Notes under the pieces: model-generated
Told to the model about the DNA's origin: nothing
Database searches by the model: none
Seen by the model: the letters and a program-made list of their open reading frames with translations, nothing else
Assembly: GCA_958009085.1 (NCBI GenBank)
Contig: OY253671.1
Location: 248,001-312,000, forward strand
Origin: Protoeuglena noctilucae
Taxonomy: Eukaryota
Reading direction: 5' to 3'
DNA: 64,000 nt
Shown: positions 6,001-53,900 of the stretch, one piece after another
How the letters are laid out: every line of letters begins with the position of its first letter
How positions within the stretch are numbered: position 1 is the stretch's first letter
Program-made: the position numbers and the translations under genes

Positions 6001-9000
6001 AGTACCCCAAGGGCGTCGAGCGCCCCGAGTACGCGTCGCTGGTCATCCCGACGCTCGACTCGGTGCGCGTGCAGTACCTCATGCACGCGCTGTGCGGGGT
6101 CAAGGTCCGCGCGGGCGGGGAGGGCAGCAAGGGCCGCCCCGTGATGCTGGTGGGCGAGCCGGGGACCGCCAAGTCGACCGTCGTGACGTCGTTCATCCGG
6201 GAGCTCGACCCGGAGCGCCACACGTCCAAGATGATCACCTTCTCCTTCCTCACCAAACCCCGCATCTTCCAGACGGCGATCGAGTCGTCACTCGAGAAGA
6301 ATCCGGGCCGCATCTTCCGCCCGCCCGGCGGCAAGCAGATGGTGGTGTTCATCGATGACATCTCGATGCCCGAGGTGAACGAGTGGGGCGACCAGATCAC
6401 GAACGAGCTCGTGCGGCAGCTGTTGGAGGAGGACGGGTTCTACCAGCTGGAGAAGCCCATCGGCGACTTCAAGAAGGTCGAGCGCCTGTGGTACTTCGCG
6501 GCCATGAACACGCCCGGCGGGGGCAAAAACGACGTGCCCAACCGCCTCAAGCGGCAGTTCGCCATCATCAACGTCCCGCCGCCCTCGCGCGCCGCCATCA
6601 ACAACATCTTCGGCACCCTCGTGTCGGGCCGGTTTGACCCCAGCGCGTTCGACGCGTCGGTGGCCGAGGTGGCGGGCCGCCTGGTGCCCATGACCATCTC
6701 GCTGTGGAACGCCATCACGCGCAAGATGCTCCCCACGCCCGCCAAGTTCCACTACCTCTTCAACATCCGCGAGCTGTCCAAGGTCTTCCAGGGGGTCATC
6801 CTGGCCACCACCGAGCGGTTCCGGGCTAAGCCGGCGCAGGGCATCGTGCCCCTCGGCGGCGGCGCCGTCACCACGGCCGGCGGCTACCTCCTCGCGCTCT
6901 GGAAGCACGAGTGCGAGCGCGTGTTCGTGGACAAGCTCGTCAACGCCGACGACAAGGCCTGGGCCGAGAACAAGATCACCGAGCTGGCCGTGGAGGCCTT
7001 CGGGGCCGCGTCCGAGGAGGTGGCGCAGATCAAGGAGCCGGTCTACTTCGTCGACTGGCTCCGTGAGCCCGTGGAGGATCCCGAGACGGGAGAGATCCTC
7101 GACGCGCACCCCTCGTACTACGAGGCGGTGCGCGGGGGGCTGAAGGAGATCCGCGAGCGCGTGGAGAAGAAGCAGGGGGAGTTCAACGAGACGTCCCGGG
7201 GTCTCAAGATGGAGCTGGTGTACTTCGACGACGCGCTCATGCACCTGATGCGCATCACGCGGCTGCTGGCCATGGCGTGCGGCAACGGGCTGCTGGTGGG
7301 CGTGGGCGGGTCGGGCAAGCAGAGCCTGGCGCGCATGGCGGCGTACATCAGCGGGGCGTTCACGTTCCAGATCACCATCACCAAGACCTACAGCGAGAAC
7401 AACCTGTTCGACGACCTGAAGAACCTGTACAAGACGGCGGGCCTCAAGGGCAGCAAGGTGTGCTTCCTCTTCACGGACGCCGAGGTGAAGCGCGAGACGT
7501 TCCTCGAGTACATCAACCAGGTGCTGATGACGGGCGAGGTGGCCGGGCTCTTCCCGAAGGACGAGATGCAGGCCATCGTGGCCGACATACGCCCGGTGAT
7601 GAAGAAGATGTCGCCGCACACGGCCGACACGCCCGATAATCTGTGGAACTTCTTCATCAACCGCGTGCGCGAGAACCTCCACGTCATGCTGTGCTTCTCG
7701 CCGGTGGGCGTGAAGTTCAGCCGCCGCGCGCAGCAGTTCCCGGGGCTCATCAACGGCTGCACCATCGACTGGTTCATGCCGTGGCCCGAGGACGCGCTCG
7801 TGGCCGTGTCCGGCAAGTTCATCGGCGACTTCGCGATGGCCTGCGACGACAAGGTCAAGCGGTCGCTGCAGCGCATGATGGGCGGCGTGCACGTCCGCGT
7901 CACCAAGGCCTGCACCGAGTACTTCGAGCGGTTCCGGCGCCACGTCTACGTGTCGCCCAAGTCGTACCTGTCGTTCGTGAACGGGTACAAGGACCTGTAC
8001 GCCGCCAAGTGGAAGCACGTGATGAGCCTGGCCAGCGCCATCAACGCGGGGTTGCAGAAGATGAAGGAGGCGAAGCAGGACGTGGACAAGCTCAAGGAGG
8101 AGCTCAAGGTCATGAACAAGGAGGTGGAGGTCAAGTCGCGGCAGGTCAAGGAGCTGCTGCAGACCATCTCGGAAAAGACGACCATCGCGGAAAAAGAGAA
8201 GCAGAAGGCGAACGCGATCGCCGACGCGGCCAACAAGCAGGCGACGGAGATCGCGGCGCAGGAGGCCGAGGCGAACCGCGACCTGGCCGCGGCCGAGCCG
8301 GCGCTGCAGGAGGCCGAGCGCGCCGCGTCCTCGATCGACCCGGCCGACGTTAAGAAGGTCATGGGCATCCGCCCGGCGCCGCCGTCGCTCGTCAAGCGCG
8401 TGTTCGACTGCGTGCTCCTCCTCAAGCACAACCGCGTGGCCTCGCCGCTCCAGTACGAGATGAACGACAAGGTCAAGACGCTCGAAATGGATGGCACGGT
8501 CTCCAAGGCCACGGTCGCCACGGAGGTGCCGGTCGCGTCGTGGGACGAGTCGATGCGCCTGGACCCCGGCAAGGTGCCCGAGGACATCACCTCCTTCCTG
8601 GAGCGCGGGTACATCAACGACGAGGTCATCGAGCTCATGTACCCGTACGTGCGCACGGAGGACTTCTGGCCGCTCATCGCCAAGGGCTCCGCGAACGCCC
8701 TCGAGGGCATCTGCGGCTGGGCGCGCGCCATGGTCAAGTACTACAACGTGGCCAAGGTGGTGGAGCCCAAGCGCGAGGCGCTGCGTAAGGCGCAGAACCA
8801 GCTCAAGGCGGCGATGAAGGAGAAGGCGACCGCGGACGCGACGCTCGCGGAGGTGCAGGCGCAGGTGGACGCGCTGCAGCGGCAGTACGACCAGGCGATG
8901 AAGGAGAAGGGCGAGCTGGAGGACCAGGCCAACATGTGCGAGCGCAAGATGGACGCCGCCGCGAACCTAATCGGGGCGCTGTCCGGCGAGGAGGCGCGGT

Positions 9001-12000
9001 GGAACAAGCAGAGCGCCGAGTTCGACGACACGATCCAGCGCCTGGCCGGCGACTGCGCGCTGGCGTCGGCGTTCGTGTCGTACCTGGGCCCCTTCAACAA
9101 GGAGTTCCGCGACCTGCTGCTCAAGCGCGAGTTCTACAAGGACTGCCTCGAGAAGAACATCCCCGTGACCAAGAACATGAACGCCACGCAGTTCCTGGTG
9201 GACGACGCCGAGGTCGGCGAGTGGAACCTCGACGGCCTGCCCACGGACGAGCTGTCGGTGCAGAACGGCATCATGGTGACGCGGGCGTCGCGGTATCCGG
9301 TGCTGATCGACCCCCAGGGCCAGGGCAAGGCGTGGATCAAGAATCGCGAGGCGCGCAACCAGCTGGTGGTCACGACCATCACCGACAAGTACTTCCGCAA
9401 CCAGCTCGAGGAGTGCATGTCGGAGGGCAAGCCGCTGCTGATCGAGAACATCGAGGAGGAGCTGGACCCGGTTTTGGACCCCGTGTTGGAGCGCCGGATC
9501 ATCAAGAAGGGCCGTTCGATGATCATCCAGCTTGCCGACAAGGAGGTGGAGTTCGACCCGCTCTTCCGCCTTTTCTGCACCACGCGCCTCCCCTCGCCGC
9601 ACTTCAGCCCCGAGCTGAGCGCCAAGGTGACGGTGGTGGACTTCACGGTCACGCTCGAGGGCCTCGAGGACCAGCTGCTGGGCAAGCTCATCCTGAAGGA
9701 GCGGTCGGAGCTGGAGGAGCAGCGGAAGAACCTATTGGTCGAGGTGAACGACTACAAGAAGAACATTAAGCAGCTGGAGGAGTCGCTGTTGTACCGGCTG
9801 TCCAACTCCCAGGGCAACCTGCTGGACGACACGGAGCTCATCGACGTGCTTGCCAACACCAAGAAGACGTCGCAGGAGGTCAACACGAAGCTGCAGGTCG
9901 CGAGTGAGACGAACGAGAAGATCACGGAGGCCTGCGAGGAGTTCCGCCCCGTGGCGCACCGCGCCGCGCTCATCTACTTCCTCATCGCCGAGTTCTCGAC
10001 GGTCAACCGCATGTACCAGACGTCGCTGAGCCAGTTCGAGGAGCTCTACGACCACGGCATCGACCGGTCGGAGAAGGCCGTGATGCCGAGCAAGCGCATC
10101 AAGAACATCATAGACTACTTGACCTACTCGGTGTTCCTCTACATCCAGCGCGGGCTCTTCGAGCGGCACAAGATGATCTTCGCGCTCATGCTCACCAACA
10201 AGATCCTCGTGTCCGCGGGCGAGATCAAGCAGGCCGAGGTGAACATCTTCCTTAAAGGCGGCTCGGAGCTCGACATCAACTCGGTGCGCGTGCAGAAGCC
10301 GTCCGGGAAGGGGAAGGGCGGCGAGTCGTGGATCTCCGACACGGTCTGGCTCAACCTCGTGGCCCTGTCCGAGATGCGGGCCTTCTCGGACCAGTCGGGC
10401 ACAGGCACCAAGGGCATCCTGGACTCGGTGCGCCAGAACGAGCAGCTGTGGAACGCGTGGTACGACAAGGAGGCCCCGGAGGCCGAGCAGCTCCCCGAGT
10501 ACGCCAACCACATTTCGAGCTTCGAGCGCATGTGCCTGGTGAAGGCGTTCCGCGAGGACCGCACGCTCATCGCGGCCGAGGAGTACATCGCGGAGGCGCT
10601 GGGGCGGCAGTTCGTGGAGAGCGTGCCGCTGAACCTGGAGAAGGCCTGGGAGGAGTCGGCGGCCAGCGTCCCGCTCATCTGCATCCTCAGCCGCGGCGCC
10701 GACCCGACCAAGCTCATCTCGGACCTCGCGCGCAAGAAGAAGAAGGAGATCCTGGGCGTGTCGATGGGCCAGGGCCAGGAGATCATCGCGCGCGGGCACA
10801 TGAAGACGGCCACGGAGGAGGGCCACTGGGTGCTGTTACAGAACACGCACCTGGGCTTGAAGTACCTCAGCGAGGTCGAGGAGCTGCTGGTCAAGGAGTT
10901 GGACAAGTTCCACCCCGAGTTCCGCCTCTGGATCACCGCGGAGCCCACGGATGGGTTCCCGATCGGCCTGCTGCAGCTGTCGATCAAGATCACGTCGGAG
11001 GCGCCCATGGGCATCAAGGCCGGCATGCGGTCGAGCTACCAGTGGGTGTCCCAGGACATGCTGGAGGCCGTGCCGCGGCAGGAGTGGCGCCAGCTGCTGT
11101 ACATCATGTGCTACGTGCACTCGATCGTGCAGGAGCGCCGCAAGTTCGGCCCCATCGGCTGGAACATTCCCTACGAGTTCAACCAGTCGGACCTGTCCGC
11201 GTGCGTCCAGTTCCTCCAGAACCACCTGCTGGAGATGGAGGGCAAGAAGGCCTCGCAGCCCACCTGGGAGACGGTGCGGTACATGATCTCGGTCATCATG
11301 TACGGCGGGCGCATCACGGACGACTTCGACCAGCTCCTGATGAACACGTACGCCGACCGGTACTTCAACCAGGCCGCCATGGCCGTCGGCTACGAGCTGT
11401 TCAAGGACGTCAAGGCAGGGTTCAGCTACGTGGTCCCGGACTCCACGGAAATCGAGCCCTTCCGCGCCGCCATCGAGCTCTTCCCGTCCCAGGACAGCCC
11501 GGAGATCTTCGGCCTGCACTCGAACGCGGACCTGACCTTCCGCACGATCCAGGTCAACGACGTGATCAACACGATCATCGACACGATGCCCAAGGCGGGC
11601 GGCGGGTCGGGCGGGGAGTCGCGGGAGGACAAGGTGGACCGCCTCTGCCAGGACCGGCTCGAGAAGGTGCCGCCCGTGTTCGAGCGGGAGGACATGATCA
11701 AGAAGATCTCGAAGCTGGGCGAGCGCGAGCCGCTCACCGTGCACCTGCGCCAGGAGATCGACCGGCTCAACATCGTCATCAACCTGACGCGCAAGACGCT
11801 CCAGAACCTCCGCCTGGCCATCGCGGGCACCATCATCCTCTCCCCGGACCTCGTCGAGGCCCTCAACTCCCTCTACGACGGCCGCGTCCCTCCCATGTGG
11901 GTCGGGATGTCCTGGGAGTCTTCGGGCATGGGAACGTGGTTCTCGGGCCTCATCAACCGCTACGAGCAGCTCCGCCGGTGGCTCGACAACGGCCGGCCCA

Positions 12001-12452
12001 AGTCCTACTGGCTCACGGGCTTCTTCAACCCCCAGGGCTTCCTCACCGCCGCGCTGCAGGAGGTCACGCGCGCGCACGCGAAGACCAAGGACAAGTGGGC
12101 GCTGGACGACGTCGTCATGGAGTCGCAGTGCACGGGCAAGAAGGTCGAGTCCCTCGGCGCCGCGCCCCAGGAGGGCGTCTACGTGCACGGGCTCTTCCTG
12201 GACGGCTGCGCCTGGTCCGACCGCGACGGCCGGCTGGTCGACGCCGAGCAGAAGAAGATCGTCAACCCGCTCCCGGTGCTCCACGTCACCGGGACCGTGT
12301 CCAAGAAGCGCGAGGGGACCTACCAGTGCCCCACGTACCGCGTCAAGAAGCGGACCGGGCTCAACTACATCACCAAGTTCGACCTCCGCACGGACGACCC
12401 GGTGTCCAAGTGGATCCTCCGAGGCGTCGCTCTGCTCTGCTCCATCGATTAG
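71..12452 (+). CDS. ODA2: Axonemal outer-arm dynein heavy chain, gamma type (DNAH5/8 class); 5' partial. Exons 71-558, 819-1034, 1183-2578, 2716-3919, 4173-5047, 5340-12452
   Basis: AAA1 motif GGAPAGPAGTGKTETTKDLGNTLGKYVVVFNC..GLAQSGLWGCFDEFNRINLDVLSV; FITMNPGYAGRQELPENLK; P-loops GPTGGGKT, GEPGTAKS and GVGGSGKQS; coiled-coil stalk; C-terminus WILRGVALLCSID*. Exons join in frame at GT/GC-AG sites. Confidence 0.93.
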
Positions 12453-31888: not shown

Positions 31889-32032
31889 CACAGCCAGCGA
31901 CACTGGCGTTTTGGCGTCACCGCGGCCCCGCGGGTCCAAAGGGGCCGCGTGGACCGCCGTTGCCCGCAATCGTGGCGTTTGAAAGTCGCTTCGCCGTTGG
32001 GCCTCGCCTCCAACGCGTTTACCATCCAAGCG

Positions 32033-34308
32033 ATGCGGCTCGTCTTCGCCGCGCTCGCTGCGACCGCGGCGCTCGTCGGCGTCGGTGAGGGCACGCTCAA
32101 ACCGGTATTCGTCGCGATCGGCAGCCCATATTGGCTCCCAGCTAGCCACTCGCTGCCCCGCGGCTCGGCGGCAGGCCCGGCACCCGATCGCGGGCTAGCG
32201 GGCTCGCTGCGCCGCGTCCGGCAACTCATGGGGCGTCGCTCGTCGTTGATACCGCAGGCGTGTGCGCGGCGGAGCAGGGGACCGTTCTCTCGCTCGTGCA
32301 AGACCGCCTCCGCGGCCTGAGTCAGATCGAGCAGGCGTCCCAGGAGGGCTGTTCGAACCAGGCCAACCAGGCCGTCATCATCAACGGCTGCGAGTGCCCG
32401 GCCATCATCCAACAGCTCAATCAGGGCAACTGCACGCCGCCCCAGCTCGGAGGCCTCACGGTCGCGCAGATCAGCAACCAGCTCAACCAGGCCTCCGCCC
32501 TCGGCCCCTGCGCCCAAGCCATCCAGCAAGCCAACCAGGCCGGCGGGTGCTCGAACCGCTGTGCGGGTGCAGGCAATCAAGCCAACCAGGCCGTCCTCGT
32601 GCGCCCTTGCGTCAACGGCGTCCCGGGGGCCCCCACGGCAGTGGGCGGCGGCAGCGTGCTTCAGGCCAATCAGGGCGGAGGCGGTGGTAACAACTAACTG
32701 AACCAGGTGAGGCTTGCATCGACATGCACTTGCATCGCAGAGGGTCGCTCTGTTCTCACCAGCCCCTTCTCTGCCTCACCCGCAGGCGGCCAACGGCGGC
32801 GGGTCCATTTTGCAGGCCAACCAGGGAGGCGGCGGGGGCAACCAGCTGAACCAGGTGAGACATGGCATGACGCGAGACGGGAGCGCGGTGGGCGCGGCTG
32901 GTCTGTGACGCGAGTTGAGTGCTGCAATGCAGGCGGCCGGCGGAGGCTTTGGCGGGATTTTGCAGGCCAATCAGGGAGGCGGTGGTGGCAACCAGCTAAA
33001 CCAGGCAAGGCTCGTTTGGAGTAGCATGCGGTGGCAGCAGCAGCGGTGGTGGCCTTTTGCGCTGAACAGCTGGTGCTTGCTCGCAGGCGGCCGGCGGTGG
33101 CAACGGCAGCATCTTGCAAGCCAACCAGGGCTCCAACGGAGGCCGCGGCAACCAGGCCAATCAGGTGAGCGTCGGGAGGTTTCCATTCGACACACGCAGC
33201 GGCACTTGCAGCACCGGCCATCTCACCCGCCAATTCTTTGGCTTGCCCGCAGGCGGCCAACGGCGGTGGGTCGATTCTTCAGGCGAATCAGGGAGGCGGC
33301 GGGGGCAACCAGCTGAACCAGGCAAGGCTCGTTTGGAGTAGCATGCGGTGGCAGCAGCAGCGGTGGTGGCCTTTTGCGCTGAACAGCTGGTGCTTGCTCG
33401 CAGGCGGCCAGCGGTGGCAACGGCAGCATCTTGCAAGCCAACCAGGGCTCCAACGGAGGTCGTGGCAACCAGGCCAACCAGGTGAGCGTCGACAGGGTCC
33501 ACATTCCTCCCCAAAATTCCTTTTGAGAGGCGCAGCAGCACTTGCAGCACCGGCCATCTCACCCGCCAGTTCTTTGGCTTGCCCGCAGGCGGCCGGCGGT
33601 GGCAACGGCAGCATTCTGCAGGCTAACCAGGGAGGCGGCGCTGGAAACCAGGCCAACCAGGCAAGGCTTGCCCCGACATGCACTCGCACTGCAGGCGGGC
33701 GCTCCCTTCTCACCGGCACCTTCTCTGGCTTACCCGCAGGCGGCCAACGGTGGTGGCTCAGTACTCCAAGCAAATCAATCTGCCGGCCTCTCGTGCCCCA
33801 GTCAGGTGCGTGTGGGACGCGCAACAGCCCGACTTGGCAACAATTTGACTTGGCACCTCTGGGCTTCACCTGATCCCTCGCACCACGGTCACGCCCCCGC
33901 AGAGGGACATCGTGGACAAGTGCAACTCGTGGTGCGGGTACGCCCCCTTCTGCCCCCAACCGTGCTGCGACCTCCTCGGCAAGGGCGGCAACTGCGGCAG
34001 GCAGTTCAACCCGGCCCAGCTGTCGGGCTTCTGCTACGACGTGTACTACTCTGGCGTGAACGAGGCCGACTTCCCCAGGGAGTGCTGCACGCAGCCCGGC
34101 ATCTCCCTCAGAGGCAGCGTGAGTGCCACCGGCCGCCCCTGCCGCATGCGCCCGGACCCAGCAGGGGCCCCGCTGCACAGATCAAGCCGCTCCACGCCTG
34201 CAGGTCCAGGACTGCGGGCGCTGCCTGCAAGGCGGTGGTGGCGCAGTGCAGCAGGCCAACCAAGCTGTCGGTGACAACGGTCGCGGTCGTGGGAGGAAGC
34301 ATGACTAG
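32033..34308 (+). CDS. Secreted Gly/Gln/Asn-repeat, Cys-rich protein (11 exons); in-frame TAA at 32695-32697
   Basis: Signal peptide MRLVFAALAATAALVGVG|VCA. Exons 32033-32084, 32258-32706, 32786-32854, 32933-33004, 33087-33164, 33253-33321, 33404-33481, 33589-33660, 33740-33805, 33903-34118, 34204-34308; every junction after the first is phase 0. Confidence 0.7.
32641..33805 (+). repeat. Tandem exon-intron repeat array: about 8 units of ~150-185 bp, with intron homology in three classes
   Basis: Repeated exon core ..(C/T)T(G/T/C)CA(G/A)GCNAA(C/T)CAGGG..AACCAG. Introns 33005-33086 and 33322-33403 are identical 82-mers; 33165-33252 is similar to 33482-33588, and 32707-32785 is similar to 33661-33739. 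Confidence 0.9.
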
Positions 34309-34324
34309 GCCTTCTGGAGCCTAG

Positions 34325-34994
34325 CTAGGGCTTCAGCCTGCGGATAAACTCCCGCACGCTCTCGCTCGCCTCCAACTTGTCTGGCATGTGAGGCACTAGT
34401 GCGCCCTCCGGCACGGCGCCGTCCAGCCTGCGCGGGCCACCGGGCTCCGAGGGCAATGAGCTGCTGCGTCTTCATTTGCGTGCGTTTGAGTTGCAAGCAA
34501 TGCGCAGCTTGAGTTGAAAGCGGTGTGCAGTTGCAGTCACCAGTGCGGCGCGGGCTCTCCGGCGTGAAGCAGTGGCCTGCCCAGCCTCTGGCAGTTGGAC
34601 ACGATGCGCCTGCGCAGGCGAGGTGGGGTCGCTGATTGCCGTTGGGCGTGCCAGGCTAACCGCCGCGCGCAGCAGAGTGCGCCCCTCACCTCAGCGTCAG
34701 GGGCTCGGCGAGTCCCACGTCCTGGGGCGGAAACAACGCCAACCCCGCGTACGAGACCCCACGGAGCAGGACTGCTCGGTCGAGCGCGATGTGGCGGCTG
34801 AAGGCGCCCTCGCCCGCTCGCAGGGCGCCCGTCGGGGACGCCACATTCACCGTGATGCCGCGGTCGTCCAGACAGGCGGCCAGGGCGTTTGCGGAGGGCA
34901 CGCTGCCATCGTCGGCTAACACGATAAGAACGGAGGGCCGGGGGCTCTCTCCCAGGATGTCTCGCGCCTCCAGACGGCGGTAGGAAAGCCCCAT
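34325..34994 (-). CDS. Small protein with possible DJ-1/PfpI (class I GATase-like) or catalase C-terminal-like fold
   Basis: MGLSYRRLEARDILGESPRPSVLIVLADDG..ACLDDRGITVNVASPTG..YAGLALFPP..LR|RIVSNCQRLGRPLLHAG..HW|LDGAVPEG..VREFIRRLKP*, with two phase-compatible GT-AG introns. The fold call is by pattern only. Confidence 0.45.
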
Positions 34995-35340
34995 CACTCC
35001 GGTCCCAGCCGCACTCGGTCGCGTGAGTGCGTAACCGCGACGCTTCCGTTCCCGTTGAAAGTGAATAATGAAATTGATTTCAAGTGCACGATGAACGGCA
35101 GCGAAAGACTCTCGGGGGCGCGCACGGGCTGGCTGCAGTGTGCTCGCTGCGCTGCGAAGCGCGCGTCCGAAACGAGCGCAGGATCGCCGGCAAATGACGA
35201 CTTGCAGTGCTCTCTGCGCTGCGGAGACGCGCGCGAATCGCGGCAAGCGAGGAGAGCGTCTAAGAGAGATGCGGGCAGCTGCCACGCACGTGGCGAGACA
35301 GCATCGCAGGGCCACATCCGCGGCTCGAAATGTGGTGCCC

Positions 35341-37440
35341 CTACGTGAAGCTTACTCGCACGCGCACGGGCCCAGGCAGGCCCTTGTCATTCACCAGGAC
35401 AATGCCTCCGTCCTCGCCCACAAACTCCGCCAGGGGCTTGCCGAGGTTCTCCTCATACATCGGCTGCAGCGCCCCCCTGTGTGTGGAACAGAGCAGGCTC
35501 CCTCGCCTCCAGCTTCTCGCCAGGGCCCAGGCCACCCGAGCCGCGCGATGCTCATCGTGCTGAGACCCGTCCCACGCCACATGCAATTATCATCCCTGCT
35601 TGCCTGAGGAAAATGTTCCGCGAGCCACACGACACGGAGGGCTCCGTGACTCCAATCGTGCGCAGACCCGGGAGCTGCACCAAGGCCTCCAGCGCCTCCC
35701 CCACCGTGGCGCCCCTGCAGAAGCAACATGAGATGCTCGCATCATCAGAGATGCGAGACATGAACGCGAAGGCAATCGCAGCATTCGCACACGCACCGAG
35801 CCAGACGGAGGGGCACGCCCGGGCTGCAGACGGGGCACATGGAGTCGCGCTCGTACTTGACGGTGTGCGTGTACACCCCGTCGTTGCCCGTGTACATCAT
35901 GTAGTTGTCCATACCCGTGCTGCGAAGCACGAAGTGCTGGACCCGATCGCGCACTTCCAGCAAAAGGTACACCTCTCAAGCCCCCGAGCCCCAACCCCTC
36001 TCTCTCGCCCCAAAGGCCCCACGCTTGCTCGCCTGAACATGGTAGCGGCCTTGAGGACCTCGAGGGCGCACTGGGCCGCGATGATGGCGTTCGTCGACGC
36101 AATGGCCGGGATGATGTTCTTCACCACGCCCTGCGTCAGCTGCAGGGTGACGCCCGAGATGCCGAAGAGCTCGGCCCGCGACCGTGCCTTCTCGTACACC
36201 CACATCATGTGCTCCGGGTTGTCGGAATCGAAATCCCCGTCCGCCTTCTGCCGTTCTTGCTCCCACAGCACCAGCTTGGCATACTCAATGCAGTGCGCCG
36301 GGGACCGAGGGGTCTCGGCAATGGTGCAGAGCGGGAAGCGGAGCTGCGGGAGTGGGAGAGGCCCGTCGAGGGCGTCAGGCGCGGGTACGAGCGCACGAGA
36401 TCAAATGCCTGCACGTCACCCCTTCCTGAGCGGCGCAGGGCAGGTCACCTGGGGCGGGAAGAGCCAGAGGGTGCACTCAAAGCATGGCGTGACCCCTGGG
36501 AGGAGCACGCGAGCGTGGCCCTTGAGCCCCTCGCTCCCTCCGTCGATGATGGGCTTGATGGACGTCGGCACAGCCTGGCCCTGCTCGTCGTACTGCACGC
36601 CACCGTACACGGGGGATACGTGAGGGCGATGCGAAGTTGGAAAGGTGCTGGGGCGCTGCGTGCCCCGCCGGATCCCTCAAATGTTCCCAAGGGTACCTCG
36701 AGGAAGCTGCAGATGACGGCGTTCATGTATCTCCGCGCCTCCAGCGAGTCGAGCCCCAAGGCGATGATGTGGAAGTCCTGGTACCACTCGTTCGGCTTGT
36801 CCTCAATTCTCCCCACGTGAGCATTGACCACGACGCCCTGAAAGGAGGCCGGCAAGCCCCGCATCAGCGGTCGCGGCGGCAGGCGCTGGCCAAGCTTTAC
36901 GCAGCGCAGTGCTCGCCTGGACCCTCTCCATGATCCGCTTGGCCGCCACGGTGGCTTTATGCTTGCCCACGTCCTCCTTGCGGAATAGGAACTGTCGATT
37001 GAGGTTGCTGATGTCGATCGTGTCCATGTCGATGATGTCGATGTTGCGAAAGCCGCTCAGGGCCAGGTCCTTCAGCAGCTCGCATCCCAGACCCCCCGCG
37101 CCCACGACCAGCAGCCGTATGTTCTCCTGTATGAACGGCAGGATCTCATCCGACGCCTCAAAGTCGGGACCTGCGGCGGCGGAGGAGCACGCATTGGAAC
37201 GCGCTCGGACGGACCCCGCGCCCCGCCGCGCGGGTCGAACGCAAGCGAGACGTTCCTGATGACATGACACGCAAACATGGAACCCATAGAGTCCTAGTTC
37301 AGCCCGCGCAGGTGCGCCGGCGCGACTCTGCGACACGTCGCAGCGTGGCCTCGGTGACGCTGCTCGCGCATGGCACCTGTGACGTTACCCGGACGCGAGA
37401 GCAAGACGTTCACATCGTACCACCGCTCGGAGCTGGCCAT
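35341..37440 (-). CDS. UBA3: NEDD8/RUB-activating enzyme E1 catalytic subunit (UBA3/ECR1)
   Basis: [71 protein letters not shown]; catalytic [38 protein letters not shown]. Confidence 0.95.
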
Positions 37441-47967: not shown

Positions 47968-50633
47968 ATGGGGGCATCGAAAAGGCGTCGGAATCGTGGC
48001 GAGGAGAGGGCGCCTGAGGACCACTTTGACGATCCCGCTGAGGTACTGACGAGTGCTTTCCGTTTGTCAAAATTGATATCGCGGAGGCCTGTTCATTTGG
48101 ACGCGCCGCAGCGACGCAACAGTCCCTCCGTCCTCGCAGGCCTTGGGTGATCGCGGGAGGGCTCATTGGCGACATGAGGGCGACGGCGACCTCGTAGGGA
48201 AAAGTTCCGATGTGAATGGAGCCACGGCTGGCGGGCACGACCCTCGCTGCGAGGGCGAGGGAGCATGCGGCGGTCAGGAGGCCGGCACGGGGCCGGACGG
48301 CGACGACGCGCAGCCGCGGCGCGGAGCAAGCGCAGAAGCAGAAGAGCCCTCCACATCAGAACCCGCAGAAACTGCGCGGCCGTCCCGCAAGCTCCAGCGC
48401 CAGTGCTTCCCCTACGGCAACTACCACCGGTGACGACCTGCGCGCAGTGGATGGCCAGCAGTCGACTTTGGAGCATTGACAGGCATCGAAGCCTGCGCTG
48501 GTATCGCAGATCTGTGACATGCAGCGGGCGCCTCGTCGCAGGTACTATGGCTATCGCCCGTCTGGGGCGTTTGACCTGGACCCGCGGTTGGGGTCCCTCC
48601 GGGCAGAGTGGGTCCGAGGGAAGCGCTGCATTGACATCGGGTGCCACCAGGGCGTGGTGGGCCTTGCCATCTGCCTGCACTTCCTGCCCCAGTCATATGT
48701 TGGCTACGACATTGACCCAGTCTTGGTCGACCGCGCTGTCAAGTCCCTCACCTGGGAGAGGCGAGGGCGGCTGTGGCTGGAGAATGCAGTGCGCGTGAGG
48801 AGTGACGTGCTGTGGTCGATTTGCGCTGGGACATTGCGAGAGTGCCACCCACAGGGCATGTGTTGGCATTGTCGGGATACCCCTTGATGCTCTTGCGCCT
48901 CGTGTGCTGCACAGGAAACGTTTGAAGGCTGCGCTGAGGGCGGGGGAGGAGCAGCCGCCTCGGAAGGCACGGCGGGTGACGACACCAGAGCCGACAGACG
49001 GGGCCGCAGGTGGCGGTGCTTGTGGGGACGGTGCTTGTGATGACGAAGTGGGTGTTAGGCCAGGCGAAGGAGATGCAGGGAACGGCGCTGGAGGTTGCCA
49101 TGGGAACGGCCACTCTTTGGGGCAGGATGGGTTGGGGCCAGTGCCGGGGGGCGTGGGAGAGGATGGGATGGCGTTGCAGGGCGGGGCACGCACAGAGGTG
49201 GATGCGGAGGGTGCGGCAGCGGGCGAGGGTGGTAACGGTGGCGGGGAAGGGTGCAGTGGGATGGGGGGTCATGCACCTGGAAATGGAAAAGGACAGGGTG
49301 TCATGTGGGCTCACGGGATGGCAGATGGGGAATGGCAGGGTGGGATGGGTGGGATGGCTCACGTGACGGCAGATGAGGCGCAGGGGGGTCCGAGCCCAAC
49401 GGCTCCGACTGCAGAGGAGCAGATTGAGGCTCTACGGCGTGTGCGGTTCGTGTGGTGAGCGTCGATGTCGATGCGGTCCTTTCGGGATTGTGGCGATATC
49501 GGGGGCAGGTGCAGCGACACATGACACGTTTGCTGTGGTATATCTCTGAGCTGACAGCTGACAGCTGAGAGTACCACGAGCGTGATGTTTTGTCACCATG
49601 GCGATGTCATCGATGGTCGCTGCGATGCAGGACCTCCAGCCCACTCGTGGCCCCACGTCACGTTTCTCTCCCGGTCCCCGCAGCACGAATTTTGTGGAGG
49701 CGGACGTGAGGCCCGGCTCAGCGGACCTCGTGCTGTGCCTGAGCGTCGCGAAGTGGATCCACATCAACTTTGGGGACGCAGGCCTGACGGCGGCCTTCCA
49801 GAAAATGGTCGACGCTCTCGTGCCGGTGAGGTGTCGTGCATGAAACCATTGCTTGACTGCAGCCCTGGGTTGCGAGCGTCGTTGCGTGTCGTATGGCCAG
49901 GCGGCGCGTAGCGAGCAGTGACTGCCGATGCTGGCTGCACGTGGCTTCGTTGCCCCACGCCTGCCTCTTGCAACTACCACACTTGCCCTCCCCCCACACC
50001 TCGACCGCCCCTCCCCGCCGTCGCCGTCGCCCCCAGGGTGGTGTCCTCATCCTGGAGCCCCAGCCTTGGAAGTCCTATCGCCAGGCATTCCACAAACAGA
50101 ATATGGCCGTGGTCCCGCACTACCGCCTGCACGAGCTGCACCTGCGGCCCGAGGGTTTCCCCCAGCTGCTGTCAGGGATGGGCATGGCGCTGATGGCTAC
50201 CATGACCCCACCGGGGGCGGAGGGGGGCTTTGCGAGGGAGATGCAGGTATACGTGAAGGGAGCGTCGGTGGGGGTGGAGATGGGGCGGGTCGAGGAGGCG
50301 AGTGGAGCGGGTGGGGTGGCGCAAGAGGGAGAGGGTGCAGGGGCAGGGGCGGGGGGGGGAGGGGGAGGTGACTGGAGGGGGTGCGGGGGTGACGTGAGTG
50401 GAGGTGCAGAGAGGGATACTAAAGCGCGTGAGGCTGGTCGTATCGTCATCGCGTTTGCGGTCACTCTTGATGTTGAAAGGGGGCTATCGAGCGGTAACAC
50501 ACACACGGTGGGTGAGGGGCCACCTCCACAACGACTCCTGCCACTAACAATGCAGCGAACGTCGACAGCTGACAACTCCCATCGCGCCCTTGATGGCCGC
50601 ACATCTCGCTGTCTTACATCCTCCCCTGCGTGA
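47968..50633 (+). CDS. MEPCE: Bin3/MEPCE-family RNA methylphosphate capping methyltransferase; 3' end uncertain
   Basis: FPYGNYHR|YYGYR..DPRL..IDIGCHQG..GYDIDPVLV; DLVLCLSVAKWIHINFGDAGL..|GGVLILEPQPWKSY..LRPEGF. Confidence 0.85.
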
Positions 50634-50769
50634 GAGCAAACGACACCCCACGGTCATCACAAGGCAACACGCTACGCCTGCCACCACGCGCTGTGTCAAG
50701 GAGCCAAACGAGTACTAGACATCGCAAGCCATTCCTTCAGGACGCAAACCCCGCAACCCTCGCCTTGTC

Positions 50770-50969
50770 NNNNNNNNNNNNNNNNNNNNNNNNNNNNNNN
50801 NNNNNNNNNNNNNNNNNNNNNNNNNNNNNNNNNNNNNNNNNNNNNNNNNNNNNNNNNNNNNNNNNNNNNNNNNNNNNNNNNNNNNNNNNNNNNNNNNNNN
50901 NNNNNNNNNNNNNNNNNNNNNNNNNNNNNNNNNNNNNNNNNNNNNNNNNNNNNNNNNNNNNNNNNNNNN
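50770..50969. other. Assembly gap (200 N)
   Basis: Run of n; a THO2 exon (KGSPVRGAGDEGG..REE) runs into it. Confidence 1.
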
Positions 50970-53900
50970 TTTCTCCTCGCGTGCGCCTCTGTCCTCACGA
51001 ACCCCCTTCCCTTCCGCAGGCAGCTTGCGACCACCCTCATCCCCCGCCCCGCGCACAGGCGACCCTTTCTGCGGCGAACAAATAGCCAATGTACAGTTGC
51101 AAAACCCTCTAAGTCTCCCCTGACACACTCCCGTCGCACGCAAAGAAAGCATTACTAGCGCTATGACAGTACCTAATTGCTCGCACATCGTGGCTGTCCC
51201 ACTCCTCGATGCCCCTCACCTGCCCCTGCGCCCCGTCGCCGTTCTCCCTCCGCCCATCGCCCCTCCCATCCTCCCCCTTGCCACCCGCCCCGTCACCCTC
51301 AGCCCCCTTCTTAGCAGCACCCGCGTCCTTCGCATTTCTCCCCGGCTCCTCCATAGTAGAACCCACCGCACTGTCGCCATCTCCCTCTCGCGCCCGCTTC
51401 GCCGGTCGCTTTGTCGGTGCACCCTCCGCCGACCCCGCCTCTCCGCCCTCGCCCTCTGTCCGCTTCGTCCCCGCACCCGCTGCGCCCCCCGTGCCCTGCG
51501 CCGCTGCTTTGCTGGCCGCCTGGGCAGCCCTCTGGGCGTTCTGCTGAGCGGCGGCCTGCGCGGCCATCTGCGCGTTAAAGAAATGGGGCAGAGAGTTGCA
51601 TAGTCACACAAGCTAGGTAATTAGACTGTGCTGCTTTGATCTGTGTGCCCATGCACTTGCGCCGCCCATCCCGCAAGCCCCCATGCTGCCATGCCCCCAC
51701 CTAACAAGCCCCCATGCTGCCATGCTCTTATATCCCCACCCCGCCCTCACCGCCTCCAGCTTGGGGAATCGCTTCACCAGGTTGCGCATGCACGTCTCCG
51801 CCGCCACACGGATCCTGCGGTCAAAGAGACGCGATAACATCGATTACATGCGACGTTACAGGGGCGGCCATTGAAGCAGTTAAGAAAACCCAGTTCGATA
51901 ACCAACGGGCATCTGCACCAACAGCTGTCCCTACCACTGTCCCCCATTCCCAGCGGCCCCCGCCCCTCACCCCTGCGCCCCTCGTTTCCGTGCGTCCGTC
52001 TCGAGCCCGATGCAGGTGGCCAGGAGGAGCCGCGCCTGCTGCTCGGCCTGGGGGAAGACCGAGAGCTTGTTGAGCAGCGCGAGGGTGCTGTTCTGCAGCA
52101 CGGGCTCGGGGGACTTGAGGCACGCCACGAACGATCGCATGGCGTCGCGCTCCCATCGGGACGTGGCTTGGATGAACCAGACGTGCGGGGTGCGCTCGCC
52201 CTCGACGGGCGCGAAGCACTTGCTGAAGCCCACGAGGGCCTTGCACTCCCGGTCGTACACCTGCGGCGGGAAGGGGGTTACAGTTGCGGTCGCGAGGGGG
52301 TCAGTGACACAGTCACAAGCGTCAACACTTGTGTCAAAAGGGTCATCACTGCCACTCGTGGCATGACTGGCACGACATCCCCCCGAACCATGGACCATGC
52401 AACCCACAGCGTGACATCCAGATCGATATCGAGTCATTAAGACCGTCCCAGCCACCACTGGTCGCGCCCCCCCAGCCACTCGCCTCTTCCGACGCGGCCC
52501 ACCGCGCCTGCTCCCTCAGCAGCAGGTCGATGAAGAAGGTCACGTGCATGACCTCGAGGTCCGTGGAGCCGAACAGCATCTGCGGGACCTGCCCCAGGCA
52601 CTTGCCGAAGAACGACAGCGTCGAGAAGTGCGGGGTGCCGATGGCGTTCATGGTCAGCACGAAGTGGGCGCAGAAGAGCGCATCCTCCGCGGACAGCAGC
52701 GCCCGGGGCCATATGCAGTGCTGGAGCAGGGCCGTGGGCACCGCCCGCACGCTCTCCTTGCTGTCGCCTCGGAACCACCCCCCGCACCGCGCCTGCAGCA
52801 TGCTGCGCACGGCCGCGACCACCTTCTCCTGCCGCGCGCTCTCCCGCGTCAGGTGGTCCACCCGGTCCTGTGCCGCACGCAGGGCAGCCGCGCCCTCACG
52901 CCGTTGCGCGCTCCCGGAGGACTGGTGCTCGGCATGGGCCTGGCTCAGGGCCTCCTTGGCTGCGGAGGGGGAGGAGATAGTCGCAACTGGGTCGAAGTGC
53001 CAAGCCAGGGGCGTCTTATCAACACAGGCTGTCTTCTGTCGTGTTGTGCGGGTGCGTGCAGGTGCGTGCAGGGTGCATGCAGGTGCGTGAGGATGCAACG
53101 CAGCCGCCGCGTCGCCCCCACGTCGTCTCACCGGCGGCGATGGCGCGAGAGTAGGACTCCCTGGGGTAGTGGATGTCGCACAGACTGAGCGACCAAAAGA
53201 TGGCGACAAAGTCCGGCGTCAGTGCCTCCCATGCGTTGGCGTGGTCGCCGTCGCTCAGGGCCTCTCTCACGCGGTCCCTCATGCGCTCGTATCGCTCCTC
53301 GATCTCCGCTTGCTGCGGCGGGGAGCAGGACGGGCAATAACGACGGGGTCCATGCACCATGGACACTGTCGATAGAATGTGTTGTTAGTGAAGCATAGCT
53401 AGAGGACAGACATTGGTAATACTACCGATCCTGTCATGCACATCCCGATACACTGCTGCCAGTGTGCGCCTCTTGTCTGTGTGCGTGCGGGTCGGAGACA
53501 CGCGCTGTGCATATTTACGGCTTCCAGGAACCCTCAAAAGCCCCCACTGTTAACAAATGTCACCTTGTCGGGCTCGATCGGCGGATTGGCGGTTCCCGGC
53601 GGGGGTGGCGGCGCGCACTTGCGCAGGAGAGGCCGGTGGACCATGAACGCGACCTCGGGCTCAATGCCGTAGGTGTGGATGAGGTCTTTAAGGGAAGGGA
53701 TGGCCTGCAAGGGGAAGCTTGGGATCGGGAGTGACGCACACAGCTGAGGAGGGGCGGTGGCATGTGGCACGGGGGAACAACAGTGCCTACAAGCAAAGCA
53801 CCGTGCGCATTTGCCATGAGAGCGGCAATGCCACCACCACCACCACCACTACCCATACCAGGTAGTCACAACACCGCTTCGGGCTTGCATGCCCGCACTC

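Follow-up and report, generated by a model that had tools for sequence, protein, structure and literature searches.

In a marine green alga, a gene that is expressed and correctly spliced carries an in-frame UAA codon ahead of an array of short repeat units, each encoded on an exon of its own. The gene consists of 11 exons on the + strand at positions 32033-34308 of the window, which is the whole 64-kb stretch of DNA that was analyzed. Our preferred reading, to which we assign a probability of about 0.55, is that the locus is an expressed orphan gene for a secreted repeat protein, that its array is solenoid-like, and that its product is mostly truncated at the UAA.

Exon organization

The gene was judged to be real, and its exons are collected in Table 1. 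All 10 introns had GT-AG or GC-AG ends, the latter in three cases, and the spliced frame comprised 442 codons, the sole Met codon of which lay in exon 1. Moreover, a six-frame translation of the 64 kb contained 20 QANQ, QLNQ, and NQxNQ motifs, and 20 of 20 fell within the sense frames of the gene, a clustering that exceeds chance. The N terminus encoded by exon 1 was hydrophobic (11-residue Kyte-Doolittle means of 1.7 to 2.3 in the first 13 segments scored), and 20 Cys residues were left past the presumed signal peptide cleavage site. Judged from N-terminal hydrophobicity and Cys content, the protein is predicted to enter the secretory pathway.

This layout bore out most of the original prediction, which had called a signal peptide and a Cys-containing domain with NQANQ motifs, then seven phase-0 mini-exons of 66 to 78 nt with one unit each (the last partial), and then a Cys-rich domain followed by a basic tail. 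An ATG at 32033 opened the hydrophobic segment, exon 2 supplied the Cys residues and the motifs, the seven mini-exons had the number, phase, and lengths predicted, and exons 10 and 11 matched the C-terminal part. The prediction went wrong in reading an unbroken frame. The 3′ end of exon 2 encodes the first repeat unit, and that unit bears the in-frame TAA (GGGGGNN-stop-LNQ). The TAA had been missed, and its presence makes translation of the array itself uncertain.

Table 1. Exons of the repeat gene and position of the in-frame stop codon within the window
Feature	Position	Strand	Description
Exon 1	32033..32084	+	ATG + 17 codons + 1 nt; hydrophobic, signal-peptide-like N terminus; donor TCG/GTGAGG
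Exon 2	32258..32706	+	449 nt; 9 Cys; six QANQ/QLNQ-type (QxNQ) motifs
In-frame TAA	32695..32697	+	Codon 164 of 442; next base C
Mini-exon 1	32786..32854	+	69 nt, 23 aa, phase 0; flanking joints on both sides in RNA contigs
Mini-exon 2	32933..33004	+	72 nt, 24 aa, phase 0; followed by GC-AG intron; in P0001
Mini-exon 3	33087..33164	+	78 nt, 26 aa, phase 0; in RNA contigs and P0001
Mini-exon 4	33253..33321	+	69 nt, 23 aa, phase 0; followed by GC-AG intron
Mini-exon 5	33404..33481	+	78 nt, 26 aa, phase 0; in P0001
Mini-exon 6	33589..33660	+	72 nt, 24 aa, phase 0; followed by GC-AG intron
Mini-exon 7	33740..33805	+	66 nt, 22 aa, phase 0; partial unit ending in Cys-containing linker
Exon 10	33903..34118	+	72 aa; Cys-rich domain with 9 Cys; short helices in the model (pLDDT up to 73)
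Exon 11	34204..34308	+	2 further Cys; one further QQANQ motif; basic tail; TAG stop

RNA support for the gene model

Splicing was examined in contigs from marine metatranscriptome samples X9 and X11, and a culture DNA run (X2) provided genomic sequence. RNA contigs from X9 and X11 carried the splice joints of introns 2, 3, 4, 5, 8, 9, and 10 (7 of 10). Introns 6 and 7 were added by P0001, a 283-aa database open reading frame (ORF) on a 1251-nt contig, which joins part of mini-exon 1, mini-exons 2 to 7, and exon 10 in order and is the sole source of the junction between mini-exons 4 and 5. The X9 joint after mini-exon 2 (33001>33084) could be shifted to GC..AG ends, the joints after mini-exon 6 (33657>33737) and mini-exon 7 (33802>33900) appeared in both X9 and X11, and the intron 10 joint (34118>34204) appeared in X11, whereas the X9 contig and P0001 both retained intron 10. 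The RNA contig of X9 record 23 spanned 32257-32707, corresponding to exon 2, with 0 differences. Unspliced contigs were also present, as X9 record 24 crossed intron 2 and X10 record 1 began within intron 1. Exon 1 had no RNA contig cover and intron 1 no direct RNA support, which is not evidence of absence, and we therefore infer the joint between exons 1 and 2.

Spliced transcripts across the array, on the existence of which the original prediction had staked itself, were found both in the RNA contigs and in P0001. Its suggestion of exon skipping found no support, as no skipping joint was present in the RNA contigs, though contigs drop rare forms. An apparent 149-nt skip (33486>33636) in X2, with X10 record 4 falling on the same two places, looked more like sequence from another locus than like a splice. 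Loose ends of contigs suggest that related units are present at other sites.

Origin of the repeat exons

The introns of the array resemble one another. Introns 4 and 6 were identical throughout (82 of 82 nt). Identity was 96.6% between introns 5 and 7, over 58 nt, and about 80% between introns 2 and 8. The k-mer depth in X2 of the sequence shared by introns 4 and 6 was 128.5, versus 63 to 68 in single-copy neighbors, which fits two copies. When the array introns were compared with the remainder of the 64-kb window, no match was found anywhere, and on this ground a mobile "introner" origin was rejected within the window. With one repeat per symmetric exon and introns copied from one another, the gene has an exon-per-repeat organization. 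The array would have grown by tandem duplication of exon-plus-intron modules, such that each unit came to lie on its own phase-0 exon between introns that are copies of each other.

The duplicated exons also retain a record of how they diverged. Mini-exons 1 and 4 encode the same 23-aa peptide though 6 nt differ in 5 codons, and a path-averaged count gave 5 synonymous changes and 1 nonsynonymous change (pS 0.29, pN 0.02). Mini-exons 3 and 5 are separated by 3 synonymous changes and 1 nonsynonymous change. That duplicate exons differ almost only at synonymous sites indicates that the array evolved as coding sequence. We conclude from these substitution patterns that the units were under purifying selection in the past.

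Predicted fold of the array

The units are 22 to 26 aa long and rich in G, N, Q, and A, and each contains two strand motifs, (S/G)-I-L-Q-A-N-Q and N-Q-(L/A)-N-Q-A-A, with Gly-rich turns between them. The residues L, Q, A, N, and Q were invariant in all seven units, and Ser was present in six. The unit pattern originally proposed, S-x5-Q-G5-N-x3-Q, proved right for two of the seven units, and the others departed from it through Gly instead of Ser at the first position, a turn of 7 residues, or Ala within the turn.

A beta-solenoid had also been proposed, and here modeling supplied strands and solenoid-type matches at low confidence (array pLDDT 50 to 60). AlphaFold2 placed 13 regular strands in residues 1-150 of P0001, two per unit, in a single-sequence prediction with a mean pLDDT of 51.6 and array block means of 51 to 61. 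When the array model was compared with known structures by VIA-align, the best matches were the beta-helix/solenoid chains 9h78_B (Z 11.9, rmsd 2.6 Å, 154 aligned residues) and 1vh4_A (Z 11.0), and all 50 structural matches listed were repeat beta-helix, solenoid, or related repeat folds, with the proviso that Z values below about 13 for repeats may reflect merely a common arrangement. A Foldseek search of the PDB with the array model returned nothing at an E value of ≤0.001 (best E value, 8.2). The model of the N-terminal domain (pLDDT 43) was uninformative.

On the basis of the model, each unit is most likely one coil of a two-stranded beta-solenoid, which is the fold that we prefer. The interior of such a solenoid would be a stack of Leu, Ala, Gln, and Asn residues, the disulfide-rich end domains would serve as its caps, and the product would be a rod-like extracellular structural or adhesive protein. 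A serious minority possibility is that the array is instead an intrinsically disordered Gly/Asn/Gln-rich, low-complexity linker or a gel-forming segment, as in glycine-rich wall proteins and adhesives. Its composition would suit such a segment (Gly makes up 31.5% and Asn and Gln together 32%, whereas 2 of the 168 residues are charged and 1 is aromatic), as would the modest model confidence, which no part of the array exceeded, and the empty Foldseek result. However, the alternation of hydrophobic and amide residues is strictly conserved in both strand motifs, down to the five residues invariant throughout, and the structural matches listed belong without exception to repeat folds. Moreover, the peptide was held constant despite synonymous change, and an ordered fold fits that constancy better than does selection on composition alone.

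The in-frame stop codon

The TAA occupies the position of the first Gln in the N-Q-(L/A)-N-Q motif of the later complete units. Past the TAA, frame 0 remained open for 277 codons, whereas the other two frames contained 5 and 3 stops. The TAA was found without variant in the DNA of X2, on an 8.9-kb contig, and again in an RNA contig of X9 and in the spliced contig of X11, a loose end of which runs from the stop into mini-exon 1. Moreover, ORFs called on 15 (2 + 13) environmental contigs terminated at the TAA. The codon appears to be fixed in the present genome, but all sequences at the locus were about 99 to 100% identical, so "fixed" may merely mean one young population. Since the TAA precedes the array, either translation of the array requires readthrough or the array is a recently silenced remnant.

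With the UAA at codon 164 and apparently fixed, the main product should be a short secreted, Cys-rich protein of 163 codons before signal peptide cleavage. Near-cognate (Gln) readthrough would be the only route to the array-bearing long form, the level of which is probably low. Nonsense-mediated decay would be expected for a transcript with nine introns after a stop. Assembled transcript was nevertheless obtained from three RNA runs, which runs against that expectation.

Readthrough with insertion of Gln has a precedent in yeast. In that work, transcripts for proteins containing 7 to 20% Gln yielded 2 to 8% full-length product despite premature stops (UAG or UAA with Gln-codon flanks), Gln had been incorporated at the stop position, and Q-stop-Q was the most permissive context (PMC13192750). 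The predicted mature protein here contains 14% Gln. The codons flanking the TAA specify Asn and Leu rather than forming a Q-stop-Q context, and no stable RNA structure was found 3′ of the stop, where the following 60 to 120 nt folded no better than shuffled sequences (z scores of +0.8 to +1.3). By analogy with yeast, a leaky stop is plausible, given the C after the stop and the Gln-rich transcript.

Leakiness might itself have been selected, such that a regulated UAA yields two secreted products per mRNA, the short Cys-rich protein and a long form with the array and the C-terminal domain. We consider this programmed readthrough unlikely on balance. In its favor, the culture DNA, the two RNA samples, and the 15 environmental contigs all show the same stop, which falls exactly where the later complete units have a Gln codon and where insertion of Gln would restore N-Q-L-N-Q. 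The 277 codons and nine working introns beyond the stop are intact, the mRNA could be assembled in spite of the early stop, and the following C and the Gln-rich transcript are both features that raised Gln-inserting readthrough in the yeast work (PMC13192750). A single C>T change in a CAA codon would explain the same picture, however, and CAA accounts for 12 of the 59 Gln codons in the gene. Selected readthrough also lacks both the Q-stop-Q context and a downstream RNA structure. Moreover, no orthologue that would show the stop to be shared across species was found in the collections searched, and the sequences at the locus are nearly identical to one another. We judge a selected arrangement with two products to be somewhat less likely than a nonsense allele that is young, fixed, and leaky at most.

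Alternatively, the stop could be bypassed at the level of RNA by a minor isoform in which a different phase-0 donor in exon 2, for example AGC/GTGCTT at 32656, 51 nt upstream, drops the TAA unit in frame. A phase-0 GT site of this kind is present and resembles the donor of intron 9 (GTGCGT), but the X9 and X11 RNA contigs used the 32706 donor only, which is weak evidence because contigs drop rare forms. We regard such an isoform as very unlikely and retain truncation at the UAA with low-level readthrough as the preferred account.

Relationship to curlins and other proteins

The original prediction had likened the units to the repeats of bacterial curli. If that likeness reflected homology or horizontal transfer, the protein would belong to the curlin (CsgA/CsgB) family and form a curli-type functional amyloid. 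Units of 22 to 26 aa with an S..Q..N..Q skeleton and Gly-rich turns do recall CsgA repeats, as do the two strands per unit in the model. CsgA chains were also among the VIA-align matches listed, where they had the highest sequence identities (28% and 22%). Their superpositions were poor, however, with Z scores of 9.1 and 8.0 and an rmsd of >9 Å; the CsgA fibril chain 8enq_A, which had the 28% identity, gave the Z score of 9.1 at an rmsd of 9.2 Å.

Every sequence comparison aimed at the curlin relationship failed. Pfam-A hmmscan, which includes the curlin profile, returned 0 families at an E value of ≤10 for the 10 exon translations, P0001 (6.5 consecutive units), and P0002. BLASTP of P0001 against Escherichia coli CsgA gave an E value of 3.4, hhalign of the unit profile against a CsgA-repeat profile gave a probability of 1% over 1 aligned column, and phmmer against all PDB sequences found no curlin. 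In the five repeats of E. coli CsgA, S1, Q7, G9, G11, N12, A14, and Q18 are invariant. The units here read S-x5-Q-x5(or x7)-N-x3-Q and do not fit the CsgA consensus, S-x5-Q-x-G-x-G-N-x-A-x3-Q; the spacing from Q to N is 5 residues rather than 4, and that from N to Q is 3 rather than 5. Moreover, a scan of 185,579 prokaryote genomes yielded no relative, and curlins lack the Cys-rich end domains and the 10 spliceosomal introns of this gene. We conclude that curlin membership is highly improbable and, as far as sequence comparison goes, largely refuted, and that the protein would be curlin-like at most by convergence and not by descent.

Searches for other relatives returned little beyond the gene itself. 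Exon 2 was compared with 1.84 billion representatives and matched only its own ORF, P0002, together with P0003 and P0004, which on inspection were unrelated repeat proteins and were set aside as spurious. Exon 10 matched P0001 alone among longer proteins and had no match in Pfam. A search with residues 1-232 of P0001, in which 8000 candidates were scored, recovered only itself and P0127. Scans of metagenome contigs, prokaryote genomes, and viral contigs produced no confirmed locus, the ESM Atlas gave no usable match, and Rfam and tRNA scans of the 64-kb window found nothing. P0002 and P0125 both correspond to exon 2, whereas P0127 reads through exons and introns in genomic DNA from the same locus and implies a 5-unit form, which may reflect variation in copy number. 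Prokaryote-style gene callers thus see exon 2 alone or exon/intron read-through fragments, and the missing database relatives are therefore weak evidence for a small family. Judged by the searches run, this nuclear gene of a marine green alga appears to be an orphan and restricted to its lineage.

Among the 90 ORFs of at least 220 aa in the window, a Pfam scan identified eukaryotic housekeeping domains and no others. The adjacent dynein was best matched by those of Tetraselmis (68%), Chlamydomonas (66%), and Micromonas (63%). The dynein gene also bears on the genetic code. A variant nuclear code in which TAA specifies Gln would leave no stop in the repeat gene and would supply the Gln that the motif demands at codon 164, but this is scarcely credible, as TAA, TAG, and TGA are all missing from a dynein exon of 2377 codons, 95 of which specify Gln (a weak test of TAA as Gln, since CAG is used every time and CAA never), and as a TAG directly after the Dynein_C domain ends the dynein gene, which rules out the known paired TAA/TAG reassignments, with the repeat gene too ending in TAG.

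Discussion

If the array is translated, a curlin-style Ser/Gln/Asn repeat would have been invented, apparently independently, in an intron-rich gene of a eukaryote. If the stop is merely a young nonsense mutation, the locus would be an ordinary orphan repeat gene early in decay. The locus illustrates how intron-split repeat genes escape gene callers, and a UAA that is present in every sequence examined, within a transcript encoding 14% Gln, offers a natural test of the yeast finding on Gln-rich readthrough. A bolder account, which we hold to be improbable, combines these elements: the population-fixed UAA would be a natural Gln-decoded leaky stop that rations a convergently curlin-like extracellular beta-solenoid. 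The gene would then provide the short Cys-rich protein and, at a set fraction, a long coat or adhesive protein that is rod-like or forms fibrils. Recombination between identical introns could also alter the number of repeats. To our knowledge, no gene has been assigned to the amyloid-like material of algae. The occurrence of such material in algae is described in a review (PMC12472103, citing Mostaert et al. 2006).

Among known structures, the model most resembles, along the full length of the array, capped right-handed beta-helix and solenoid domains (SufB/SufD-type, CAP C-terminal, the A-domains of fungal Awp adhesins, and the antifreeze protein 3p4g), with Z scores of 8.7 to 11.9 and rmsd values of 2.4 to 3.5 Å over 109 to 154 residues in a comparison that rests on a low-confidence model. 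Several of these are extracellular adhesins or surface-binding proteins, and 3p4g is a Ca-dependent beta-helical antifreeze protein; a common fold class says nothing on function, and sequence identities of 4 to 15% provide no evidence of homology. With CsgA, the protein would share secretion, tandem units of about 22 to 26 aa, Ser, Gln, Asn, and Gln at strand ends with small hydrophobic residues between them, Gly-rich turns, and, in the model, two strands per unit. Unlike CsgA, it is encoded by a eukaryotic gene with 10 introns and has Cys-rich domains at both ends, and domains of Csg export or nucleation partners were absent from the 90 window ORFs of at least 220 aa.

The stop codon resembles the sites of Gln-inserting readthrough in yeast in being a UAA followed by C in a message for a 14% Gln product and in having sister repeats with Gln at the same codon. 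The yeast sites were engineered or mutant alleles (PMC13192750), whereas the stop here is flanked by Asn and Leu codons. Finally, the organization of the array recalls spider silk genes. Nephila Flag and Argiope MaSp2 are described as iterated exon-plus-intron modules with near-identical introns within a gene (PMC3563967). The exons here are far smaller (66 to 78 nt), the array is shorter (7 units), the organism is an alga, and the repeat chemistry is different, but the same iteration of exon-plus-intron modules is seen, with intron 4 being identical to intron 6.

RESULTS

Eleven exons were read from the sequence on the plus strand, separated by introns of 78 to 173 nt (n = 10), and the spliced frame comprises 1326 nt, or 442 codons. 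The original prediction of a one-repeat-per-exon array was confirmed in that seven mini-exons of 66 to 78 nt, all seven in phase 0, each encode one repeat unit. Seven of the 10 introns have GT-AG ends, and introns 4, 6, and 8 have GCAAGG donors (at 33005, 33322, and 33661). Six-frame translation of the 64 kb yielded 20 occurrences of the motifs QANQ, QLNQ, and NQxNQ; all 20 lay within sense frames of the gene, and the pattern cannot therefore be put down to composition. Exon 1, encoding a putative signal peptide, and its joint at intron 1 are predicted from the sole Met codon of the frame, the strongly hydrophobic N terminus, and canonical in-frame splice sites. Neither TGTAA nor AATAAA was found in the ~1.2 kb scanned downstream of the stop codon of exon 11 (34309 to 35500); RNA contigs reach at least 34450, and a poly(A) signal is not obvious 3′ of the gene.

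Exons of the repeat gene (window coordinates)
Feature	Position	Strand	Length	Remark
Exon 1	32033-32084	+	52 nt	
Exon 2	32258-32706	+	449 nt	
Exon 3 (mini-exon 1)	32786-32854	+	69 nt	
Exon 4 (mini-exon 2)	32933-33004	+	72 nt	
Exon 5 (mini-exon 3)	33087-33164	+	78 nt	
Exon 6 (mini-exon 4)	33253-33321	+	69 nt	
Exon 7 (mini-exon 5)	33404-33481	+	78 nt	
Exon 8 (mini-exon 6)	33589-33660	+	72 nt	
Exon 9 (mini-exon 7)	33740-33805	+	66 nt	
Exon 10	33903-34118	+	216 nt	
Exon 11	34204-34308	+	105 nt	TAG at end

Contigs assembled from one DNA run (X2) and three marine metatranscriptome runs (X9, X10, and X11) were aligned to positions 31900 to 34450. Exact joints for introns 2, 3, 4, 5, 8, 9, and 10 were present in X9 and X11 contigs, and X10 contigs contained no splice joint in this interval. 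Introns 6 and 7, though without a joint in the run contigs, are covered by P0001, a 283-aa database open reading frame (ORF) called on a 1251-nt contig, which takes in the end of mini-exon 1, continues through the other six mini-exons and exon 10, and extends into a retained intron 10. The transcripts are thus spliced across the array, with the mini-exons joined in order, as had been expected. Across the run contigs in this interval and P0001, intron 1 is the only intron without RNA support, and so is the signal-peptide exon. Unspliced contigs (X9 record 24, which spans intron 2, and X10 record 1, which begins within intron 1) are pre-mRNA or DNA carry-over. RNA joints that can be shifted to GC..AG confirm two of the three GC-donor introns, and splicing in this alga therefore extends to GC-AG introns; their high share here (3/10) is attributable to duplication of one module. 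Intron 10 (34119 to 34203) was kept in P0001 and an X9 contig and removed in X11; when it is retained, the 34 C-terminal residues, with the basic tail and a QQANQ motif among them, give way to an unrelated tail of 51 residues.

The continuous frame implied by the original prediction did not hold, as an in-frame TAA at 32695 to 32697 (codon 164) had been missed, and the end of exon 2 reads ..GGGGGNN-TAA-LNQ. Two contigs, one from X2 DNA (8.9 kb) and one from X9 RNA (455 nt), span the TAA without difference, and the loose end of an X11 contig begins at the stop, takes in the rest of exon 2, and passes directly into mini-exon 1. Moreover, two ORFs from other assemblies, P0002 (2 contigs) and P0125 (13 contigs), terminate precisely at the TAA. 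Together, the DNA, RNA, and ORF ends rule out assembly error as its source. Where the TAA lies, later complete units have the first Gln of N-Q-(L/A)-N-Q, and a single C-to-T change from CAA would explain the stop, as CAA is among the Gln codons of the gene (12/59).

The window is eukaryotic nuclear DNA of ~65% G+C, and it was found in marine metagenomes, marine metatranscriptomes, and one cultured organism. A 200-N assembly gap (50770 to 50969) adjoins a dip in G+C to 0.58 (bin 50001 to 52000). Neighboring ORFs encode axonemal dynein heavy chain, PPR, EMC1, GNAT, Bin3, THO2, and ArfGAP domains, and the dynein matches green algae best (Tetraselmis, 68%; Chlamydomonas, 66%; Micromonas, 63%). The source is accordingly taken to be a marine green alga. 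The dynein gene is of outer-arm type (935 to 12452, plus strand), and its last exon is one 7.1-kb open frame (2377 codons, 5319 to 12449, TAG at end). None of the three stops occurs inside this exon, and its TAG immediately follows the C-terminal domain. The nuclear code looks standard by this comparison, but because the exon encodes Gln by CAG alone (95 codons), it is only a weak test of TAA-only reassignment. Gln codon bias was much weaker in the repeat gene than in the dynein exon (CAA in 0/95).

Codon comparison shows that the array was once coding. The 23-residue peptides of mini-exons 1 and 4 are identical despite 6 nucleotide differences in 5 codons (path-averaged count, 5 synonymous and 1 nonsynonymous; pS 0.29, pN 0.02), and between mini-exons 3 and 5 there are 3 synonymous changes and 1 nonsynonymous change. 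After the TAA, frame 0 is open for 277 codons, and the other two frames contain 5 and 3 stops. The array arose by duplication of exon-plus-intron modules: introns 4 and 6 are identical (82/82 nt), introns 5 and 7 are 96.6% identical over 58 nt, introns 2 and 8 are ~80% identical, and the array introns had no match elsewhere in the 64-kb window. X2 DNA depth over the intron 4/6 sequence (128.5, versus 63 to 68 in single-copy neighbors) fits its two copies in the window. An ORF from two environmental contigs (P0127; longest, 6554 nt) runs from mini-exon 2 through the intron 4/6 sequence into mini-exon 5, without the 317-nt block (33005 to 33321) carrying mini-exons 3 and 4. Either the identical introns were collapsed in assembly, or the short form is a genuine copy-number variant produced by recombination between those introns.

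Read through, the product would have 441 residues and, after presumed signal-peptide cleavage, 22% Gly, 14% Gln, 12% Ala, 12% Asn, and 20 Cys. The 168-residue array is 31.5% Gly, 16% Asn, and 16% Gln, with two charged residues and one aromatic. Within the first motif, (S/G)-I-L-Q-A-N-Q, the residues L, Q, A, N, and Q do not vary among the seven units. In this motif and the second, N-Q-(L/A)-N-Q-A-A, small hydrophobic residues alternate with amide residues, and we read the alternation as the in/out pattern of two β-strands. AlphaFold2, run on P0001 without an alignment, gave 13 regular strands, two per unit (pLDDT 50 to 60), and a C-terminal Cys-rich domain of short helices (pLDDT up to 73); the N-terminal domain model was uninformative (pLDDT 43). 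Foldseek returned no match to the P0001 model. An exhaustive VIA-align search placed model residues 1 to 154 onto β-helix or solenoid chains, led by 9h78_B (Z 11.9, rmsd 2.6 Å, 154 aligned) and 1vh4_A (Z 11.0), although for repeats a Z below ~13 may mean a common arrangement only. Further matches were adhesin A-domains, RTX blocks, and a β-helical antifreeze protein, and the CsgA (E. coli curlin subunit) fibril 8enq_A reached Z 9.1 at 28% identity but with an rmsd of 9.2 Å. The predicted β-solenoid is therefore reasonable but unproven: the paired strands and solenoid matches favor it, whereas the low pLDDT, the Z range, and the empty Foldseek search do not.

DISCUSSION

The early, seemingly fixed stop is the unusual, testable feature of this locus. 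We put at roughly 0.55 the probability that the product is mostly truncated, with leakiness at most. On one possibility, a young, fixed nonsense allele would yield a short secreted Cys-rich protein and leave the array as a spliced 3′ remnant; on another, leaky decoding of TAA by tRNA-Gln would restore the motif. Yeast offers a comparison for leakiness: Gln-rich mRNAs (proteins of 7 to 20% Gln) carrying premature stops give 2 to 8% full-length protein, Gln was found inserted at the stop, and weaker termination was linked to several features, a C after the stop among them (PMC13192750). The read-through product here would be similarly Gln-rich (14%), and C follows its stop, but Asn and Leu codons flank that stop in place of the Gln codons of the yeast context, and the 60 to 120 nt of RNA 3′ of the stop gave folds that did not improve on those of shuffled sequences (z +0.8 to +1.3). 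Selected readthrough is an unlikely alternative, and splicing that omits the stop by way of an alternative phase-0 donor at 32656 is less probable still; none of the contigs uses this donor. Were the long form proven to be made, interest in the locus would rise from moderate to high.

Nothing other than fragments of this locus was recovered from 1.84 billion representatives, a 5.8-billion-cluster collection, metagenome contigs, prokaryote genomes, viral contigs, or the ESM Atlas. The gene may be an orphan, but such negatives are weak evidence because mini-exon arrays are invisible to gene callers. X2 DNA and X10 RNA contigs depart from the locus at loose ends (33464 and 33636), and the sequence beyond, when read as protein by eye, contains similar-looking units whose turn differs (..QLNQGGST..), which hints at expressed paralogues elsewhere in the genome.

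Membership in the curlin family failed four sequence-based tests: no Pfam match of any kind at E ≤ 10 for any exon, P0001, or P0002; BLASTP against E. coli CsgA at E = 3.4; an hhalign probability of 1% between the aligned units and the five repeats of CsgA; and no curlin among phmmer matches in all PDB sequences. CsgA is alike in unit length, in Ser/Gln/Asn/Gln at strand ends, and in Gly turns, but its Gln-to-Asn spacing is 4 residues rather than 5 or 7, and its Asn-to-Gln spacing is 5 rather than 3. What remains of the likeness is analogy only, and, with Cys-rich domains at both ends, the protein may look more capped, like a soluble solenoid, than open-ended, like a fibril subunit. No gene is known to be tied to algal amyloid-like material. 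Such material has been reported from algae (PMC12472103).

The locus can be described as an orphan gene for a solenoid-like secreted protein with one repeat per exon, a variation on known kinds, and its architecture has precedents. Multiple, nearly identical introns within one gene are described for Nephila Flag and Argiope MaSp2 (PMC3563967), and in its near-identical introns this gene resembles them.
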